DNA of 32,000 nucleotides, taken from positions 60,001-92,000 of the forward strand of contig APJZ01000002.1 in assembly GCA_000387965.1 (NCBI GenBank). The letters run 5' to 3'. The stretch's first letter is position 1; each line of letters begins with the position of its first letter. Source of the DNA: Candidatus Nanobsidianus stetteri. Lineage in GTDB: Archaea > Nanobdellota > Nanobdellia > Nanobdellales > Nanobdellaceae. The position numbers were made by a program, and so were the translations under genes. Shown here one piece after another: positions 15,062 through 28,600 of the stretch. Under the pieces are notes generated by a model. It saw nothing but the letters and a program-made list of their open reading frames with translations, was not told the origin of the DNA and did not search any database.

Positions 15062-16990
15062 ATGGATAACAAAGTAGTAGTAACAATAAGAAGATTGTTT
15101 AGTTTTTTAATGGGATTAGTATTATTAGGATTGGGAGTATATTCACAAGGATCAATAATAATAGAACCACAGACACAAACAATATTAGCAAATGCAGCAA
15201 ATAATCTAACATTTATAGTAAAGTTACAAGGAGTAAATCAGACTCCAGAAGAGGCAAATTTGTACTTTAATATATATGCACCAAATGGGCAGTTAATATA
15301 TCAATATTATGAACCAATATCAGTATGTACAGGATTGAACATATATCAGGTATCAGTAAATCCATTAGAATTAGAAAATTTAGTACAACAGTATAGTTCA
15401 ACAAGTTCATGTTCATCTTATACATGTTCAGTACAACAATATTATAATTTCACAGTACAGGCAAATGTAACATTATTATATCCATCAGGTTTAGAATATG
15501 TAACAGCAAATCAAACATATAATTTAACATTCGTACCATATAATTTGACATTATCATTAGTACAATTACCAGAAGTAATTTCACAACAACAAGCAGAAGA
15601 ATATGGAATAAGTGTACAATCAGTAGTATATTTACAAAATGTTGAAACAAGCATACAATCATCTACATTAACATTAACATTATATGATTCACAAGGAAAT
15701 ATTGTATACCAAACACAAGAAAATGTAAATCTACAACCAGGAGAGAATTTATTAACTGTAAATATACCAAACTATTATTTAGAAAATGTACAAGGAGAAA
15801 TGTATGTATCAGAACAATTGGATGTTGTATTATCTAATGGACAAGTATTAACACAACAAGCAGAACAATCATTCTATATATCAAATAATCAAAATGGACA
15901 AAGTGTACAAGTAATTTCAATATCACCAAACTTCAATTCATTGAACAATTTAGTAAATTCTGTATATAATGTAGAAGTATTAATGGAGAACCCAAGTTAT
16001 CAAACAGTAAATGCAACAGTTCAAATGTTATTATATGACCAATATGGAGATTTAATATACAATTTACAAGGTTCACAAGTAATATCTCCAGATTCTCAAG
16101 GAGAAGTAACATTACCATTAAATACAATGTCATTACAGCCAGGATATTATACATTAATATTATATGTATATCAAAATGGTGCAGAAGTATATCAATATAA
16201 GTATACAATAACAGTAAATGCACAAAATATACAGCCAGTAAATGTATTAAGTGTATATCCAAATACATTTAATGTAAAACCAGGACAATTTGTAGAATTA
16301 TATGCAAATTTAGAATCTAACTTACCAATGAATATACAAGTACAACCAATAGTAGAATCACAACAATTAAATATATTCCAACAATTATCAACAGTAACAT
16401 TATCACCAAACCAAGTAACACAATTACCAGTAGTAATATATATTCCAGCAAATTTAACAGCAGGATATTATCCAATAGAATTTGTATTCAATTATAATGG
16501 AATATCACAAACATATACATATAATTTATATGTAAATGGAACAGTAATAGTACCAGAACCAATAAGTGCGTCATTGGTTGGATATCTACCATTAAAATAT
16601 GGACAAAATTCAACAATATACCTAGTAATAAGTTCAAATACAACACAGATATATAATTTATTAATACAAGCATATGCTGTCGGAGGAGAAGTATATCCAG
16701 AACAACAAGAAGTACAAATAGGAGGTACATATACTGAACAAATACCATTGAATGTAACTGCAGAAAGTAATAATGTAACAGTATATGTAAATATAATAGA
16801 TCAACAAACAGGACAATTATTATATTCATTAAATGAAACATATTCAGCATCTCAAGCACCTTCAGTATCATTGCCATCATTAGGATTAATATTCTGGATA
16901 TTGGTAATATTAGCAATAATAATAATAGCTGCAGTATTAATAGAATCAAGAAGAGGAGGTAAAAAAGAAAAGGAAAAGGCTGAAGAATAA
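15062..16990 (+). CDS. secreted, C-terminally anchored surface glycoprotein candidate (S-layer/adhesin-like, repeated beta-sandwich modules)
   Basis: The signal peptide ends in GVYSQG. The protein has 642 aa rich in Q/N/Y/V/T. N-x-S/T sequons are many (NLT, NQT, NFT, NVT, NST). A recurring module core appears as NIYAPNGQLIYQYY, LYDSQGNIVYQTQ, LYDQYGDLIYNLQ and IIDQQTGQLLYSL. The C-terminus has a TM helix LGLIFWILVILAIIIIAAVLI followed by RRGGKKEKEKAEE. Confidence 0.7.
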   Translation: MDNKVVVTIRRLFSFLMGLVLLGLGVYSQGSIIIEPQTQTILANAANNLTFIVKLQGVNQTPEEANLYFNIYAPNGQLIYQYYEPISVCTGLNIYQVSVNPLELENLVQQYSSTSSCSSYTCSVQQYYNFTVQANVTLLYPSGLEYVTANQTYNLTFVPYNLTLSLVQLPEVISQQQAEEYGISVQSVVYLQNVETSIQSSTLTLTLYDSQGNIVYQTQENVNLQPGENLLTVNIPNYYLENVQGEMYVSEQLDVVLSNGQVLTQQAEQSFYISNNQNGQSVQVISISPNFNSLNNLVNSVYNVEVLMENPSYQTVNATVQMLLYDQYGDLIYNLQGSQVISPDSQGEVTLPLNTMSLQPGYYTLILYVYQNGAEVYQYKYTITVNAQNIQPVNVLSVYPNTFNVKPGQFVELYANLESNLPMNIQVQPIVESQQLNIFQQLSTVTLSPNQVTQLPVVIYIPANLTAGYYPIEFVFNYNGISQTYTYNLYVNGTVIVPEPISASLVGYLPLKYGQNSTIYLVISSNTTQIYNLLIQAYAVGGEVYPEQQEVQIGGTYTEQIPLNVTAESNNVTVYVNIIDQQTGQLLYSLNETYSASQAPSVSLPSLGLIFWILVILAIIIIAAVLIESRRGGKKEKEKAEE

Positions 16991-17046: not shown

Positions 17047-17052
17047 TTTGTA

Positions 17053-17102
17053 CCCCTACTAACTCAACCTTTTTCATCTATCTAAGGTTACCCTAGTAGG
17101 GG
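17053..17102. other. GC-rich bipartite hairpin abutting the stop codon of the GATase gene
   Basis: CCCCTACTA (17053-17061) pairs perfectly with TAGTAGGGG (17094-17102). The inner stem pairs AACCT (17066-17070) with AGGTT (17085-17089). There is a 4+4 nt internal loop and a 14-nt apical loop. On the reverse strand the stem is followed by U-ACA. Confidence 0.45.
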
Positions 17103-17630
17103 CTATATACATTCTAAAAAATTAATTATTATATCTTTATTTAAAACTTCTGGATGAAACAATGAAAAATATATATTTTTGTATTTATATAATACTGGAA
17201 TATTTTCTACCTTTCCAATTATATAAAATTTTTCATCAATCTTTGGGATTTTTGTTATTAAAAAATAAGCTTCAAAATCTTTATCAACTATTTTATCTTT
17301 ATTTATTATTTTTACATAATATTTTCCAATCAATTCTTTATCTTCAAAATCATAATTTAATAATTTTGTCAATATCTGGCTTCCGGAACATATTGCAAAG
17401 GTTTTTATATTGTTTTCAATTATAAATTCAAAATTTTTTATATAATTTAAATAATCAAAATCCATTATTGCAGTACCTGTTATTATTATTTTTTCAAAAT
17501 ATTCATTTATTTTATCTTTATATGAAAAAACTTTATAATTAATATTTAATTCTTTTAAAATATTTATTATTGGATATAGAAATTCATATTTTGATAGTTC
17601 TTCTTTATTTGTATAAATTATCCCAATCAT
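17103..17630 (-). CDS. class I glutamine amidotransferase subunit (stand-alone, about 175 aa)
   Basis: The nucleophile elbow is AICSGSQIL, the His-Glu pair is LFHPEV, and IIITGTAIMD corresponds to the usual ILSGGP segment. The start forms an ATGA overlap with the upstream Dph6-like gene. Confidence 0.7.
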   Translation of the reverse strand: MIGIIYTNKEELSKYEFLYPIINILKELNINYKVFSYKDKINEYFEKIIITGTAIMDFDYLNYIKNFEFIIENNIKTFAICSGSQILTKLLNYDFEDKELIGKYYVKIINKDKIVDKDFEAYFLITKIPKIDEKFYIIGKVENIPVLYKYKNIYFSLFHPEVLNKDIIINFLECI

Positions 17631-18292
17631 TCTAAATAAGCATTTTTTATAATATATTCTGCATAATTTTTTTCTACCTTTATTTCATAATCTTTTATTA
17701 TTATCCTTTTCTTAAATAATGGTTGATATAAAACAAATGTTTCATATTCTCCACCTTCTCCTGAAATGTTTATTTTATATTTTTCTTTATATTCGATTAA
17801 TTTTTTTATTATATTTTCATCAACAACTTTTCCCAAAATATTTATATCTAAAGGATATGTATACCATCCAACAATTATAAATTGAAAATTATTTTTTAAT
17901 AATTCATATAAATATTCTTTTTCATCTTTTAACCATAATGGATTAAAACACCATAGATTTAATCTTTTGCATATTCTTTGAAATCTTGATCCCTGATATG
18001 TGGATCTAATTGCTCCAGTGACAACCCCATCAATATTATATTCTTCCTTTAGATATTTTAATGCTTCAAACAATGTTTCTTCCTCATTATTATTTATATA
18101 AAATCTTTCTATAGGTATATTCAATGCTTTTGATTGTAATTCAGTTAAATTATTATTAATATAATGATATAAATAACTCTCATTATTTTTTGGAATTATA
18201 TTTAATAGTACAGATACTTCATGATATTTTGATGCAATATATAATGAATAATTTGAATCTTTTCCTCCAGAATATAATACTGCAAGTTTCAT
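17627..18292 (-). CDS. dph6: Dph6-like PP-loop ATPase (MJ0570 family, diphthine-ammonia ligase)
   Basis: The PP-loop is LAVLYSGGKDSNYSL. Other hallmarks are GAIRSTYQGSRFQRICKRLNLWCFNPLW and SGEGGEYETFVL. At 221 aa it is too short, and lacks the features, to be GMP synthase subunit B. Confidence 0.8.
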   Translation of the reverse strand: MKLAVLYSGGKDSNYSLYIASKYHEVSVLLNIIPKNNESYLYHYINNNLTELQSKALNIPIERFYINNNEEETLFEALKYLKEEYNIDGVVTGAIRSTYQGSRFQRICKRLNLWCFNPLWLKDEKEYLYELLKNNFQFIIVGWYTYPLDINILGKVVDENIIKKLIEYKEKYKINISGEGGEYETFVLYQPLFKKRIIIKDYEIKVEKNYAEYIIKNAYLE

Positions 18293-18855
18293 ACCATATG
18301 TTTTGGTATAGAACTTATTAAATTATATATTAAGTTGTATAAATAATTTTCAGGTAATTTCTGATAAATTATATTACAATAGTTTTCTGAATAGCAATAA
18401 ACATTATTATTATATAAAAATACATCCCTATTAACAATTACTATTGGATATGTAATATTTATATAGTATGTTATATTATAACATGAAGGTACGGGACAGC
18501 TTATTACTGAACACTCTATAATTGGTGAACATTCTTTAATTGTTATATTATAATAAAATGTTTGATTGCAAAATACAAATGAAGTAGTATTAATATATTC
18601 TACTAAAGGTATTATATAATTTATTCCCGGCCCTTTATTTTTTATTATAAAATATCCTTCAGTAATATTATATAAATAGCATCCATTTCCGTATAAGTTC
18701 AATAGATATACTGATATGTTTTGATTATCAATTGTAATATTTGTTTTTTCTAAAATATAGTTATTATTAAAGTTTACATTATTTAATAATAATATAAAAA
18801 ATAATACCAATATAGATATTATTCCTAGAATTATTGTATAAAAATAAGATCTCAT
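18289..18855 (-). CDS. N-terminally anchored Cys/Asn/Tyr-rich extracellular protein
   Basis: The N-terminus is MRSYFYTIILGIISILVLFFILLL. An exposed domain follows with clustered Cys (KECSPIIECSVISCPVPSCYN, VYCYSENYCN) and many N-x-T sequons. The stop overlaps the dph6-like start. Confidence 0.55.
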   Translation of the reverse strand: MRSYFYTIILGIISILVLFFILLLNNVNFNNNYILEKTNITIDNQNISVYLLNLYGNGCYLYNITEGYFIIKNKGPGINYIIPLVEYINTTSFVFCNQTFYYNITIKECSPIIECSVISCPVPSCYNITYYINITYPIVIVNRDVFLYNNNVYCYSENYCNIIYQKLPENYLYNLIYNLISSIPKHMV

Positions 18856-18894
18856 AATAAAATATTTTTAAGATTTTTTTAAAAGGTTTTAATA

Positions 18895-19071
18895 ATGGTA
18901 GAAATTGTAATAAAGGGATATGAAAATGGACCATACGAAATATCAGTAAATGGAGAAGTATTATATCATTTATGTAGATGTGGTTATTCACAAAATAAAC
19001 CATATTGTGATGGATCTCATAGAAAAATGGGATTTCAGGCAAAAGCTTTTGAATTAAAAGTTAATAAGTAA
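18895..19071 (+). CDS. CDGSH-type iron-sulfur domain protein (58 aa)
   Basis: It is not in the track (under 60 aa). It runs from ATG 18895 to TAA 19069-19071. The translation is MVEIVIKGYENGPYEISVNGEVLYHLCRCGYSQNKPYCDGSHRKMGFQAKAFELKVNK. CRCGYSQNKPYCDGSH matches the CDGSH signature C-x-C-x2-S-x3-P-x-C-D-G-S-H. Confidence 0.8.
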   Translation: MVEIVIKGYENGPYEISVNGEVLYHLCRCGYSQNKPYCDGSHRKMGFQAKAFELKVNK

Positions 19072-19189
19072 TCTTAATTTATTATTTTTTATTAAAATAT
19101 TTATCTCCTAAATCCCATATTTATACAAATATAACTATATGTAATATCATAAAATTTATTTTAAAATATTATTCTTTAATTTTATTATA

Positions 19190-21394
19190 ATGGCTAGTCT
19201 AACTGAAAGAATATTGCAAGTTATGAATAATCCGAATAATATAAGGAATATAGGTATAATTGCTCATATACACCATGGAAAGACAACGTTGACAGATTCT
19301 TTATTGGCAGGTGCGGGAATGTTGGCAGAAGAGCTTGCAGGTGAGGCGATGTTTACATGGTGGCACGAAACTGAAAGACAAAGAGAAATGACAGTATATG
19401 GAGCTGCAGTTTCAATGGTTCATAATTATGAAAATCAAGATTATTTAATAAATTTAATAGATACTCCAGGACACGTAGAATTTTCAGGACAGGTTACTAG
19501 AGCTACTAGAGCAATTGATGGTGCAATTGTTGTAGTAGATTTTGTTGATGGAATAATGCCTCAAACAGAAACTGTATTGAGGACAGCATTAAAAGAATAT
19601 GTAAAACCAGTATTATTTATAAATAAAACTGATAGAGCGATTACAGAATTAAAATTATCTCCACAACAAATTATGGAAAGAATTGGAAAGATAGTTATTG
19701 AAGTAAATAGATTAATTGATAAATATTCTCCTCCAGAATTTAAAGGAAAATGGAATGTAAATGTAAATGACGGATCTGTTGCATTTGGATCTGCAAAATT
19801 CCATTGGGCATTATCAGTACCTTTTATGAAAAAATACAATGTTTCATTTAAAGATGTAATTGAAATATATAATCAATTTTTAGAGGATAAAGAAAAATTA
19901 AAGGAAGAAATGAGAAAAAAGGCACCTGTTGCAAAGGTTGTATTAGATATGGTTATAAGACATTTACCCTCCCCAGTTGAAGCTCAAAAATATAGAATTC
20001 CTCATATATGGAAGGGAGATATAAATTCAGATGTTGGAAAAGCAATGTTAAATTTAGATTCAAACGGACCAATTGTAATAAATGTAACAAATGTAATAAT
20101 TGATAAAGTATCAAAACAAGAAATTGCAACTGCAAGAATATTTTCAGGTACATTATCAAAAGGTGATGATGTATATTTAATCCAAGCTGGAAGGCAAATA
20201 AAAATACAACAGGTTGCTATATGGAAGGGAATACAGAGAATAAATGTAGATTCTGCAAAGGCTGGTAATATAATTGCTTTAGTTGGAATAAAGGGATTAT
20301 ATCCTGGGGAAACAATTGTTGGAAAAGTTCAAGATCCAAAAAGTGTTGAAACATTCGAAGAGATGAGACATTGGTTAGATCCTGTGGTTACAAAATCATT
20401 TGAACCAAAGAATCCAAATGATTTGCCAAAATTAATTGAAACATTAGATCTATTAACAAGAGAAGATCCAACAATAAAGGTTGAACAAAAAAGAGATACT
20501 GGAGAAATCATAGTATCCGGTTTGGGAGATTTACATTTACAAATAATAGAATATAGAGTACAGAATGATTTTGGAATACCTGTAAAGGTTGGAGATCCAA
20601 TAGTAATTTATAGAGAGTCGGTTAATAAAGCTACACAGGTATATGAAGGAAAGTCTCCAAATAAACATAACAAAATATACATACAAATTGAACCTTTACC
20701 ATATGAAATATATGAAAAAATGAGAGAATATATTAGGGAAGGAAAATTACCTGAAGGTAGAATTAAAAAGGAAGATTTATGGAAAGTGTTTAATGAAATT
20801 GGGTTTGATAAAGAAGAAGCAAGGAGAATTATAATGGTACATAATGGAAATGTATTGATAGATATGACAAGAGGTATTGTTCATTTGCCAGAAGTAATAG
20901 AATACATTGTTGAAGGATTTAAGGAAGTAATGGATCAAGGTCCATTGGCATGGGAACCTGGTATAATGATGAAAGTAAAATTGATTGATGCAGTATTACA
21001 TGAAGATGCAATTCATAGAGGTCCTGCTCAAATAATTCCTGCAGCAAAGGAGGCAATTAAAAGTGCAATCCTTGAACAACCAACATTATATGAACCATTA
21101 CAAATTATAAGGATTGATGCTCCTCCAGAATCTGTTGGAGATGTAACATCTATATTACAATCAAGAAGGGGACAAATATTGGAAATGAATATTGAAGAAG
21201 AAAGAGCAATGGTTAAGGCAAAGCTACCCGTAGCAAATATATTTGGATTTACAGATGAATTAAGGTCTGCAACATCTGGAAAGGGTGTTTGGTTCTTAGA
21301 AGATCAGGTATATGAAAAAGTTCCAAAAGATTTACAGCAACAAATAATAGATTCTATTAGAAAAAGAAAGGGAATACCTGAAGGGGTTCACTAA
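19190..21394 (+). CDS. fusA: translation elongation factor 2 (aEF-2)
   Basis: IRNIGIIAHIHHGKTTLTDSLL, LINLIDTPGHVEFSGQVTRATRAIDGAIVVVD, MPQTETVLRTAL, VLFINKTDR, and the domain IV tip LHEDAIHRGPAQIIPA. The diphthamide-target His is His609, nt 21014-21016. Confidence 0.95.
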   Translation: MASLTERILQVMNNPNNIRNIGIIAHIHHGKTTLTDSLLAGAGMLAEELAGEAMFTWWHETERQREMTVYGAAVSMVHNYENQDYLINLIDTPGHVEFSGQVTRATRAIDGAIVVVDFVDGIMPQTETVLRTALKEYVKPVLFINKTDRAITELKLSPQQIMERIGKIVIEVNRLIDKYSPPEFKGKWNVNVNDGSVAFGSAKFHWALSVPFMKKYNVSFKDVIEIYNQFLEDKEKLKEEMRKKAPVAKVVLDMVIRHLPSPVEAQKYRIPHIWKGDINSDVGKAMLNLDSNGPIVINVTNVIIDKVSKQEIATARIFSGTLSKGDDVYLIQAGRQIKIQQVAIWKGIQRINVDSAKAGNIIALVGIKGLYPGETIVGKVQDPKSVETFEEMRHWLDPVVTKSFEPKNPNDLPKLIETLDLLTREDPTIKVEQKRDTGEIIVSGLGDLHLQIIEYRVQNDFGIPVKVGDPIVIYRESVNKATQVYEGKSPNKHNKIYIQIEPLPYEIYEKMREYIREGKLPEGRIKKEDLWKVFNEIGFDKEEARRIIMVHNGNVLIDMTRGIVHLPEVIEYIVEGFKEVMDQGPLAWEPGIMMKVKLIDAVLHEDAIHRGPAQIIPAAKEAIKSAILEQPTLYEPLQIIRIDAPPESVGDVTSILQSRRGQILEMNIEEERAMVKAKLPVANIFGFTDELRSATSGKGVWFLEDQVYEKVPKDLQQQIIDSIRKRKGIPEGVH

Positions 21395-26140: not shown

Positions 26141-28600
26141 ATGAAACTATTAAAGATATTTATATTTGGATTAATGGTTATTTTAATATCAAGATTTGTA
26201 TATTCTCAGGGATGGTATCAAGTTACTATAACAAATTCTCAATCTCAAGCAACTCCACAACCTTTCCAACAAGATATAGCAATATGTAATGGAAGTATAA
26301 ATATTGGTCCTAACTTTGCATATGTAAATAATCCAACATTATTTAATGAAATAGATTCAAACGGACAAAATGTATATTTTTCTACAAATTTAGGAAGTTC
26401 TCCAAATATATATTCATGGTATGAAGGTCAATTAAATTATGGTAATACATATTGTGATGTATGGTGGATAAATTTACCTCAAGGAATTAATGCTAATTCA
26501 GAGATAACAATATATATGTATATAGGATCTTCTAGTGATAATTATTATTTTCAATATTATCCATATGTTGGAGCTTCTACTCCAGTAGTTTCAGAATATG
26601 TTAAAGATTATGATAATGGTCAAGATGTATTTATAGCATATGGATATTTTGATTATACACTTGACGGATGGAATGTTGGTGTTTATTCTGGATCCTGGTC
26701 TCCAACACCATCCTCCTGCGGCGTTGAAATGTTAAATGCTAGTAATAATGAAGGTACATACATTTTACCACCAAATGATGGAAATATTCCAAAAATACCT
26801 TTAATTGTTGAGGAAGCCTGGTATTACACTGGCTTTGGGCATGCGAATGTAATAGCATTGTTTGGAACTAATCAGCAAATTCAGGCTGCCAGTATTGGAG
26901 ATACATCAGGTGGATATACACCAACATCTGATTCATCTACATTTGTACAATTTCAGTATGCTCCTACAAGTAAGCCACCCAATAGTCAAGCAGTTATGTT
27001 AAAATCTGCAGTAACAGGTCAATATTTAAATTATACATATTTTCCATATCTATATGTTTCTGAAGGTGGAACTATTTATTCATATTTAATTGTTACCTCC
27101 AACTATGCGGAAGCGGGATATTATATTTATTCTGATATTGAGGGGTGGATTACATGGGCCCCAATAACATTATTAGATACATATACTTATAATGTATATA
27201 ATTCTAATAATATAAATGAAGGTCTTTCAGCATATACATATGCTAATTTAAATTATAATCCTTTCCAATATGGTACATTAGAAATAGGCGCTGGGGATGG
27301 AGATGGTTATTATACATCAACTCAATGTGTTCAATGGGTAGTAGCGAGAGCATATCCTCCAAATGGTGTAATGCCTAGTATTTCCATACAGCCTCTCGTT
27401 TCAGTTGAATATATTATAGTAAACCCTCCAAGTTATTCCCCACCTCCACCAAGTTCTTCTTACATTTGTCCAGGTACTCAAGTATCATCAACAGTAACTG
27501 CTTATTTAAACAATCCATACAATGTTCCTGCAACAGTTACTTTTTCTTGTTCAGCACCTTCAGGTATTTATTGTTCATTTTCTCAAAATTCATGTACTAC
27601 TAGTGGATCTTCTTGTTCAACAACATTGTATGTAAATTTATCTCCATTAATATCTCAAGGACAATATTCAGTAACAGTGACAGCTTCAACTGAGGAATCT
27701 TTATCATCAGCGACGCTTGCTATTAATGTAGGTCAATGTTCAGCTCCAGTTACATCTGTTCAAGTAAGTCCTCCAAGTTCTTCTTACATTTGTCCAGGTA
27801 CTCAAACATCATCAACAGTAACTGCTTATTTAAATAAACCTAGTAGTGCCTCTACTACAGTTACTTTTTCTTGTTCAGCACCTACTGGTTCTGGCATTAC
27901 ATGTTCAGTTAATCCATCATCCTGTACTACTACTGGATCATCATGTTCAACAACATTATATGTAAGTTCATCTTCATCAACACCTCAGGGATCATATCCT
28001 ATAAATGTAATAGCCTCAATTCCTGGATCTTCATCACAATCAACGTATACTCTTGATGTGGGTCCTATTTTAATTTATAGTCTATCAACTTCAAACATTC
28101 AAAATTCATATACAGGTTGTGTCTATTACGGTATAATTCAATTGCAAGCAAGTATTCAACCAATTAATACAAATAATACATATGGACCAATTGGAAATAA
28201 TTTAGAATTTAGTTTAGGTTATCCAGAATACATTTTAACATTAAATATAACAAATATAGGAAATATAGCATTAAACAATATTACGATAAATTTATTACAA
28301 GAAGGAAATGTACTAGAAATATTATATAATGGAATTCCAATACAATCATTAAATAATATAAATATCGATCAATTACAACCAAATCAATCATATATATTAC
28401 AGTTTAATGTATTACCATTATATATCGGATCTTCATCATTATTATTAAGTTTCAATGTAAATGGACAAAATATTGGAAATGCTCAATATAATTTAATTGT
28501 AAATGGACCTTCAAATAGTTCTTCATTAATTGCATCAGAAAATATTAATTATATATTAATTTTGTTAGGAATAATTGGATCAATAATATTCTTAATCTAG
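26141..28600 (+). CDS. large secreted, C-terminally anchored surface protein (DUF2341/LamG-like N-terminus, Cys/Ser/Thr-rich tandem repeats, CARDB-like domain)
   Basis: The signal peptide ends in FVYSQG. GWYQVTITNSQ ... NVYFST ... YSWYEGQLNYGNTYCDVWWINLPQGINANSEITIYMYIGS resembles my recollection of the DUF2341 pattern. Two 108-aa repeats lie at nt 27449-28063. LTLNITNIGNIALNNITINL ... LQPNQSYILQFNVLP looks CARDB-like. The C-terminal TM helix is YILILLGIIGSIIFLI. Confidence 0.7.
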   Translation: MKLLKIFIFGLMVILISRFVYSQGWYQVTITNSQSQATPQPFQQDIAICNGSINIGPNFAYVNNPTLFNEIDSNGQNVYFSTNLGSSPNIYSWYEGQLNYGNTYCDVWWINLPQGINANSEITIYMYIGSSSDNYYFQYYPYVGASTPVVSEYVKDYDNGQDVFIAYGYFDYTLDGWNVGVYSGSWSPTPSSCGVEMLNASNNEGTYILPPNDGNIPKIPLIVEEAWYYTGFGHANVIALFGTNQQIQAASIGDTSGGYTPTSDSSTFVQFQYAPTSKPPNSQAVMLKSAVTGQYLNYTYFPYLYVSEGGTIYSYLIVTSNYAEAGYYIYSDIEGWITWAPITLLDTYTYNVYNSNNINEGLSAYTYANLNYNPFQYGTLEIGAGDGDGYYTSTQCVQWVVARAYPPNGVMPSISIQPLVSVEYIIVNPPSYSPPPPSSSYICPGTQVSSTVTAYLNNPYNVPATVTFSCSAPSGIYCSFSQNSCTTSGSSCSTTLYVNLSPLISQGQYSVTVTASTEESLSSATLAINVGQCSAPVTSVQVSPPSSSYICPGTQTSSTVTAYLNKPSSASTTVTFSCSAPTGSGITCSVNPSSCTTTGSSCSTTLYVSSSSSTPQGSYPINVIASIPGSSSQSTYTLDVGPILIYSLSTSNIQNSYTGCVYYGIIQLQASIQPINTNNTYGPIGNNLEFSLGYPEYILTLNITNIGNIALNNITINLLQEGNVLEILYNGIPIQSLNNINIDQLQPNQSYILQFNVLPLYIGSSSLLLSFNVNGQNIGNAQYNLIVNGPSNSSSLIASENINYILILLGIIGSIIFLI
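27449..28063 (+). repeat. two tandem 324-nt (108-codon) intragenic repeats
   Basis: Unit 1 starts at 27449 and unit 2 at 27773. Both open with the identical 33-mer CCAAGTTCTTCTTACATTTGTCCAGGTACTCAA. Further identical runs follow: TCATCAACAGTAACTGCTTATTTAAA and ACAGTTACTTTTTCTTGTTCAGCACCT. The protein units are PPSSSYICPGTQ.SSTVTAYLN...TVTFSCSAP...C...SCTT.GSSCSTTLYV. Confidence 0.85.

Follow-up and report, generated by a model that had tools for sequence, protein, structure and literature searches.

Where does an archaeal diphthamide synthetase obtain the nitrogen that it adds to elongation factor 2 (EF-2)? The question is raised by a stretch of 32,000 nucleotides (nt) from Candidatus Nanobsidianus stetteri (contig APJZ01000002.1, positions 60,001 to 92,000 of the forward strand; hereafter the window), in which a gene for Dph6 overlaps a gene for a small, stand-alone class I glutamine amidotransferase (GATase). 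Diphthamide is a universal modification of EF-2 in archaea and eukaryotes, and we know of no description of its last step other than as an ammonia-dependent reaction. A sequence-only reading of the window had suggested that the two genes encode a two-subunit, glutamine-dependent enzyme that resembles GMP synthase. The conserved synteny, natural gene fusions, and structural modeling presented below agree with this prediction and, judging from sequences, models, and analogy together, we consider it probable that the overlapping genes specify a heteromeric, glutamine-hydrolyzing diphthamide synthetase. The features on which the argument turns are these:

17103-17630, minus strand: class I (triad) GATase, 175 amino acids (aa), identified with PF00117, AlphaFold2 (AF2), and Foldseek
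17627-18292, minus strand: Dph6, a PP-loop ATP pyrophosphatase, 221 aa, identified with TIGR03679 and PF01902
17627-17630, minus strand: ATGA overlap of the Dph6 stop and GATase start, read from the sequence as the earlier reading had it; predicted translational coupling
19190-21394, plus strand: EF-2, the presumptive substrate, with the His609 codon at 21014-21016, identified with TIGR00490

The synthetase subunit carries all of the motifs that had been quoted for it, among them the SGGKDS PP-loop and GEGGEYETF, and scored 246.5 bits on TIGR03679 (Dph6_archaeal), for which the cut-off is 197.3, and 7e-61 on PF01902. Its matches to crystal structures included PF0828 (7.5e-55) and PH1257 (5.6e-48). 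The EGG(E/D)xE188 motif separates Dph6 from the DUF71-B12 subfamily, which has ENGExH instead (PMC3541065; de Crecy-Lagard et al., 2012). All 42 partner Dph6 proteins that we inspected have both SGGKDS and EGGExE. On these sequence criteria, the assignment of the window protein as a bona fide Dph6 is firm. EF-2 with His609 lies in the same window, and the remaining pathway genes, Dph5 and a split Dph2, both appear in the gene table published for Nanopusillus acidilobi, a relative at 95% identity.

The GATase had been described as a class I enzyme with an intact Cys and His-Glu pair, and profile search, AF2, Foldseek, and motif alignment all converge on that description. In Foldseek searches with the AF2 model of the window protein (predicted local distance difference test [pLDDT], 90.1), the GuaAA structure 2a9v was matched with a template modeling (TM) score of 0.81 (E, 1.7e-12), and 2a9v, PH1346, and the Methanocaldococcus jannaschii GATase ranked above TrpG, PabA, and Pdx2. 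A profile built from 29 family members likewise matched archaeal GuaAA structures (E, 2.5e-17). Cys81 (AICSGSQ) and His159/Glu161 (FHPE) of the window protein, and the family motifs GICAGMQ and FHPEV in the profile alignment, align with LGICLGHQ and FHPEV of M. jannaschii GuaAA. Among 40 nonredundant family members, the triad residues are conserved in 40 (C81), 39 (H159), and 40 (E161); G52 and G83 do not vary, and 34 of the 40 have retained the residue that aligns with the Gln of GxCxGxQ.

Membership of the GATase in the GuaAA, PdxT, HisH, or TrpG family was considered and rejected, with all NCBIfam scores falling far below the respective cut-offs: 23.9 versus 198 (NF001975/PRK00758) and 23.8 versus 172 (TIGR00888) on the GuaAA models, and 29.2 versus 181 (NF010050) and 19.9 versus 105.6 (TIGR03800) on the PdxT models. 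PRK00758 was matched by 28 of the 29 family members, the best only at an E of 7.9e-18, and none came near the GuaAA cut-off. Because GuaAA is the nearest relative in both profile and fold, yet no member approaches its cut-off, the GATase is, by these sequence comparisons, a distinct family that appears to derive from the GuaAA GATase lineage. The window protein is 97% identical to its counterpart in a Candidatus Nanopusillus metagenome-assembled genome, 95% identical to that of N. acidilobi, and 69% identical to that of Nanobdella aerobiophila.

Pairing and fusion of Dph6 and the GATase across archaea

The sequence-only reading had proposed recurrence of the adjacency, or its fusion into one chain, as a check on the idea, and both were found. 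When 1.84 billion representative proteins were searched with the family profile, 310 GATase-family clusters were returned at an E of ≤1e-10, and a genome scan, with one genome per GTDB species, yielded 38 loci with the family. These belong to Nanopusillus, Nanobdella, YN1, Woesearchaeota, Pacearchaeota, Aenigmatarchaeota, uncultured Methanosarcinales, Archaeoglobaceae, and Thermoproteota, and thus to several archaeal phyla. In all but one of the 38 species-representative genomes (37 of 38), the GATase gene has a Dph6 gene upstream of it in the same orientation. The two genes overlap in 33 loci, by an identical 4 nt in 32 of them and by 26 nt in one; in four Pacearchaeota-type genomes, they are separated by 0.4 to 2.7 kb of other genes. 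The genes that flank the pair vary by lineage. Four long matches in the protein search proved to be fusions, with Dph6 at the N terminus and the GATase at the C terminus, and a search with these four retrieved about 110 clusters of Dph6-GATase fusions of 390 to 500 aa, with linkers of about 20 to 65 aa. Many fusion clusters are labeled Methanothrix/Methanosaeta, and Micrarchaeota and Aenigmatarchaeota also appear among the labels; at their source, the fusions are annotated as "diphthine--ammonia ligase" or as "GMP synthase subunit A." A glutaminase-type subunit and a PP-loop synthetase are thus stably coupled at the genetic level.

As a control for the background frequency of such neighborhoods, we sampled 80 Dph6 loci from metagenomes, in order of their similarity to PH1257, of which 61 were evaluable and 19 were not; to be counted as unpartnered, a locus had to extend for 700 nt or more downstream of Dph6 and to contain no GATase gene at any position. 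A GATase gene was directly downstream in 9 of the 61 evaluable loci and absent from the other 52. The Dph6-GATase pairing is therefore not a background effect of any Dph6 neighborhood. A neighbor-joining tree built from 176 Dph6 domains placed every one of the 105 partnered or fused domains in a single clade of 114 leaves, and parsimony required five changes between the partnered and unpartnered states. The GATase is co-inherited with a distinct Dph6 clade.

Six positions distinguish partnered or fused Dph6 from the rest, with the consensus A81, A101, Q105, C115, N117, and P147. Q105 is found in 99% of partnered versus 6% of unpartnered proteins and N117 in 94% versus 8%; P147 is present in 92% of the partnered clade, and unpartnered Dph6 has Gly at this position. 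The window Dph6 has four of the six (Q105, C115, N117, and P147). From their distribution in the alignment, these positions are candidates for residues of a subunit interface or an ammonia path.

A natural fusion, P0105, was modeled as a proxy for the window pair, using AF2 with an alignment of 65 fusions. The model had a pLDDT of 94.3 and a predicted TM score (pTM) of 0.91, with low confidence confined to the linker (residues 231 to 240). Its N-terminal domain superimposed on PH1257 with a TM score of 0.96 (1.1 Å) and its C-terminal domain on GuaAA with a TM score of 0.73. A Foldseek search with the model found no solved structure that holds both domains, each domain being matched separately. 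Given the pTM, the model implies that the Dph6 and GATase domains pack in a defined, fixed interface.

Whether another enzyme could receive the ammonia was assessed in the gene table of N. acidilobi (PMC4935971, supplementary table 1), which has the same gene order as the window and served as a proxy for its genome. The single "GMP synthase" entry in that table is this GATase, and the single PP-loop ATPase entry is this Dph6; the table has no GuaAB and no entries for PdxS/pyridoxal, carbamoyl phosphate synthetase (CPSase), NadE, or AsnB, and the CTP synthase of N. acidilobi has its own GATase domain. The organism is unable to make nucleotides or cofactors (PMC4935971). Since the table offers no other free synthase partner, Dph6 is the only candidate acceptor for GATase-derived ammonia in a genome of the N. 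acidilobi type. The same table shows Dph2 as two separate genes in Nanopusillus and Nst1 and as missing from Nanoarchaeum equitans (PMC4935971, supplementary table 1); this agrees with the split Dph1/2 that Narrowe et al. reported in DPANN archaea.

Several loci bring further genes into contact with the pair. In L038, the one locus of the 38 in which no Dph6 was seen upstream of the GATase, a class I methyltransferase-like open reading frame (ORF; 100-858) overlaps the GATase start. Some genomes of the Pacearchaeota or Aenigmarchaeum type have an inserted GNAT-like gene (about 155 aa) that separates Dph6 from the GATase, with overlapping gene ends (L041, 1247-1708; L043, 3487-3960). A 689-aa protein, P0263, carries S-adenosylmethionine (SAM)-methyltransferase, Dph6, and GATase Pfam domains in one chain. 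The GNAT-like and methyltransferase-like genes and the modules of P0263 may be extra players in EF-2 modification.

Proposed mechanism and competing explanations

In the model that we favor, Dph6 would adenylate the diphthine carboxylate on His609 of EF-2, while the GATase would hydrolyze glutamine at the Cys81-His159-Glu161 triad by way of a Cys81 thioester. The nascent ammonia would then pass from the GATase to the Dph6 active site and displace AMP from the acyl-adenylate, yielding diphthamide. The model for this scheme is GMP synthase, which likewise has an N-type PP-loop ATP pyrophosphatase as its synthetase, and it is from this analogy that we infer glutaminase activity, ammonia channeling, and the use of glutamine in vivo. 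Because pairing and fusion recur in many archaeal lineages, the nitrogen probably comes from glutamine and not from free ammonia. It also seems likely, and we say this with slightly more reserve, that a large and ancient Dph6 clade in archaea consists of obligate glutamine amidotransferases, which would be classed as a new "diphthine:glutamine amido-ligase" under Enzyme Commission (EC) number 6.3.5.- and not under EC 6.3.1.14.

A number of observations weigh against a glutamine-dependent synthetase. All Dph6 enzymes characterized so far, to our knowledge, use free ammonium. The window GATase on its own passes the PF00117 gathering cut-off only marginally (23.7 versus 22.8 bits; fused relatives, 35 to 77 bits). 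In one Thermoproteales-labeled lineage (P0008; L003, 6001-6540; and L030), the triad His is replaced by Ser (FSPE); this lineage keeps the triad Cys and Glu, and its overlap with Dph6 is the 26-nt one instead of the usual 4 nt. In four members of the Pacearchaeota type, the Gln of GxCxGxQ is replaced by His, and the pair is interrupted or separated in 5 of the 38 genomes. The Dph6 tree was built without support values, and its partnered and unpartnered samples were gathered differently. Finally, peptides of neither Dph6 nor the GATase were detected in the N. acidilobi proteome table.

The GATase is currently annotated as "GMP synthase - glutamine amidotransferase domain" (arCOG00090), and the sequence-only reading had itself kept a GuaA-type partner as an alternative. 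Under this explanation, the protein would be a plain GuaAA, or a glutaminase of the PdxT, HisH, TrpG, or PabA type, that serves a synthase encoded elsewhere, and its overlap with Dph6 would be incidental operon packing. The annotation fits, as does the position of GuaAA as the closest family by profile (PRK00758 and PDB matches) and by fold, but the protein scores far under every curated cut-off (23.9 bits against 198 in the case of GuaAA), and in N. acidilobi the table lacks GuaAB, PdxS, CPSase, NadE, and AsnB alike, and nucleotide and cofactor synthesis is impossible for the organism. Incidental packing also accounts poorly for an adjacency found in 37 of 38 genomes across phyla and for some 110 clusters of fusions, and the pair is kept by Methanosarcinales, Archaeoglobaceae, and Thermoproteota, which, unlike the DPANN lineages, are not reduced-genome symbionts. 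We regard this explanation as largely refuted and as highly improbable.

Two other explanations accept the partnership and question what it does. The GATase-fold subunit could be a true partner of Dph6 without being a nitrogen donor, acting either as a Dph7-like methyl-esterase on overmethylated diphthine or as a noncatalytic subunit for assembly or EF-2 docking. Removal of the methyl ester in eukaryotes is the job of the unrelated Dph7, which archaea lack; class I GATase folds include nonglutaminase hydrolases (peptidase C26), and several of the fusions weakly match PF07722. The loss of the triad His in one lineage and the links of the pair to SAM methyltransferase modules in L038 and in the triple fusion P0263 could be read in the same way. 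Yet the conservation of the triad and of the aligned motif Gln is that of true glutaminases, methyl-ester intermediates are not known for archaea, and GMP synthase sets the established pattern of a glutamine-dependent enzyme that combines a PP-loop synthetase with a class I GATase; we therefore hold a nondonor role to be unlikely. Less likely still is that the partnered clade amidates a substrate other than diphthine, for example, a small-molecule carboxylate as proposed for DUF71-B12 in cobamide salvage. The separate clade of partnered Dph6 proteins, with its six characteristic residues, would suit such a change of substrate, but all of the partners have the Dph6-specific EGGExE and not ENGExH, and the window protein exceeds the Dph6 equivalog cut-off. 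In N. acidilobi, moreover, this is the only PP-loop/DUF71 entry, alongside Dph2, Dph5, and EF-2 with its acceptor His, so that no enzyme would be left for the last step of the pathway if this one acted elsewhere. A glutamine-dependent diphthamide synthetase thus remains the explanation that we prefer.

Genes and other features around the pair

The window has about 23% G+C and a content of housekeeping genes of Nanobdellota (formerly Nanoarchaeota). Two further genes lie between the Dph6 and EF-2 genes:

18289-18855, minus strand: 188-aa Cys-rich protein with an N-terminal hydrophobic segment, without a Pfam or NCBIfam match
18895-19071, plus strand: CDGSH-type iron-sulfur/zinc-finger gene, 58 aa, between the operon and EF-2

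The three minus-strand ORFs for the 188-aa protein, Dph6, and the GATase are linked by successive ATGA overlaps, and from this arrangement they form an apparent three-gene operon with the 188-aa gene first. EF-2, which scored 943.7 bits on TIGR00490, is transcribed divergently from this operon, and direct translation places His609 as the His of DAIHRG. Its location on the other strand and the position of the His609 codon were correct in the sequence-only reading, and the distance of 1.3 kb given there was not: the start codons of Dph6 and EF-2 are separated by 0.9 kb, with the CDGSH and 188-aa genes in between.

The proximity of EF-2 was considered as a functional link and rejected. EF-2 adjoins the pair only in the Nanopusillus, Nanobdella, and YN1 loci, and its adjacency is therefore local synteny that is not part of the system and has no bearing on mechanism. 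The CDGSH gene, too, neighbors the pair only in these three groups, its position being conserved in Nanobdella (PF09360) and N. acidilobi (Nps_03115); at 58 aa, it is shorter than the 60-aa minimum of the ORF list. The same distribution holds for homologues of the 188-aa protein upstream of Dph6. This protein is rich in Cys and in N-x-S/T sequons, and its homologues diverge fast, with 40 to 79% identity compared to 74 to 97% for Dph6; its N. acidilobi counterpart, Nps_03120, is listed as uncharacterized, with one transmembrane (TM) segment (PMC4935971). Any role for the 188-aa protein in the Dph6/GATase enzyme is doubtful.

Scans of the window for tRNA and Rfam families detected no RNA genes. 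Directly 3' of the GATase stop codon, in the intergenic region between the GATase and the convergent 642-aa S-layer-like gene, is a stable hairpin of 53 nt (window positions ~17050-17103, minus strand). The 111 nt around it fold with -26.4 kcal/mol (z, -3.05), and only 1 of 200 shuffled sequences folds equally well. Box-like CUGA and AUGAUGA motifs lie about 20 to 30 nt downstream of the hairpin, which has no Rfam match and might represent either a small RNA or an element of the terminator type. The convergent gene (15062-16990, plus strand) encodes a Gln/Asn/Thr-rich protein with a signal anchor and a C-terminal transmembrane segment and with Ig-like matches at subthreshold levels only; its N. 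acidilobi counterpart (Nps_03135) is annotated as an S-layer domain protein (PMC4935971). Elsewhere in the window, an 819-aa ORF without a Pfam match (26141-28600, plus strand) lies in the only stretch of elevated G+C content (0.32 versus ~0.23).

Relation to known amidating enzymes

The possibility that the ammonia source of Dph6 may vary was suggested by de Crecy-Lagard et al. (PMC3541065) from fusions of DUF71 to AsnB, a class II GATase with a PP-loop domain, in a few archaea (Methanohalophilus, Methanosalsum, and Nanosalinarum) and from RidA fusions in eukaryotes; in general, the same authors saw no clustering of DUF71 with other genes. Neither that paper nor Narrowe et al. (2018) mentions a class I GATase as a partner of Dph6, and our full-text literature searches, in which diphthamide, diphthine, or Dph6 was paired with glutamine-dependent, glutaminase, GATase, or amidotransferase, turned up no further description. 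The fusions are listed in databases under generic names. We predict that a glutamine-dependent, GMP synthase-like diphthamide synthetase is widespread in archaea and that its split form is routinely misannotated as a purine biosynthesis gene.

If this prediction is true, there would be a second, glutamine-dependent form of the enzyme that finishes diphthamide, and the GATase would be the first of the triad type to channel ammonia into an enzyme that modifies a protein side chain. It would be a clean case of a GuaAA-type glutaminase recruited by a different PP-loop enzyme with a protein substrate. It would also explain how host-dependent nanoarchaea without ammonia assimilation of their own complete diphthamide, and it would correct the label "GMP synthase subunit A" or arCOG00090, which gives a false hint of purine synthesis in reduced DPANN genomes.

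Among known systems, the synthetase subunit is an orthologue of the canonical, ammonia-dependent Dph6 (EC 6.3.1.14; yeast Dph6/YLR143W, PH1257, and PF0828), which has no glutaminase partner, whereas the window Dph6 has a predicted one; eukaryotic Dph6 enzymes have RidA domains in place of such a partner. The two-subunit archaeal GMP synthase (GuaAA plus GuaAB in M. jannaschii and in Pyrococcus horikoshii, PH1346/PH1347) likewise has a stand-alone class I GATase of about 180 aa, and its GuaAB subunit is an N-type PP-loop ATP pyrophosphatase that adenylates the substrate before ammonia attack, as proposed here for Dph6. The differences are that the partner is Dph6 and not GuaAB and that the substrate would be a modified His on EF-2 and not xanthosine monophosphate; the GATase is only about 17 to 23% identical to GuaAA, scoring more than 130 bits under the GuaAA cut-offs, and the order of genes or domains is synthetase followed by GATase, the opposite of fused GuaA. 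The AsnB-DUF71 fusions embody the same idea of glutamine-derived ammonia fed to Dph6 by an attached amidotransferase, but they do so with an N-terminal, Ntn-type class II GATase and a second PP-loop domain, whereas the pair described here has a C-terminal or downstream class I triad GATase without an extra PP-loop. NadE, which exists with or without a glutaminase domain, offers a precedent for one PP-loop amidating enzyme in both ammonia- and glutamine-dependent forms; there, the recruited glutaminase is of the nitrilase family and the substrate is a small molecule, while here the glutaminase-type subunit is a class I GATase.

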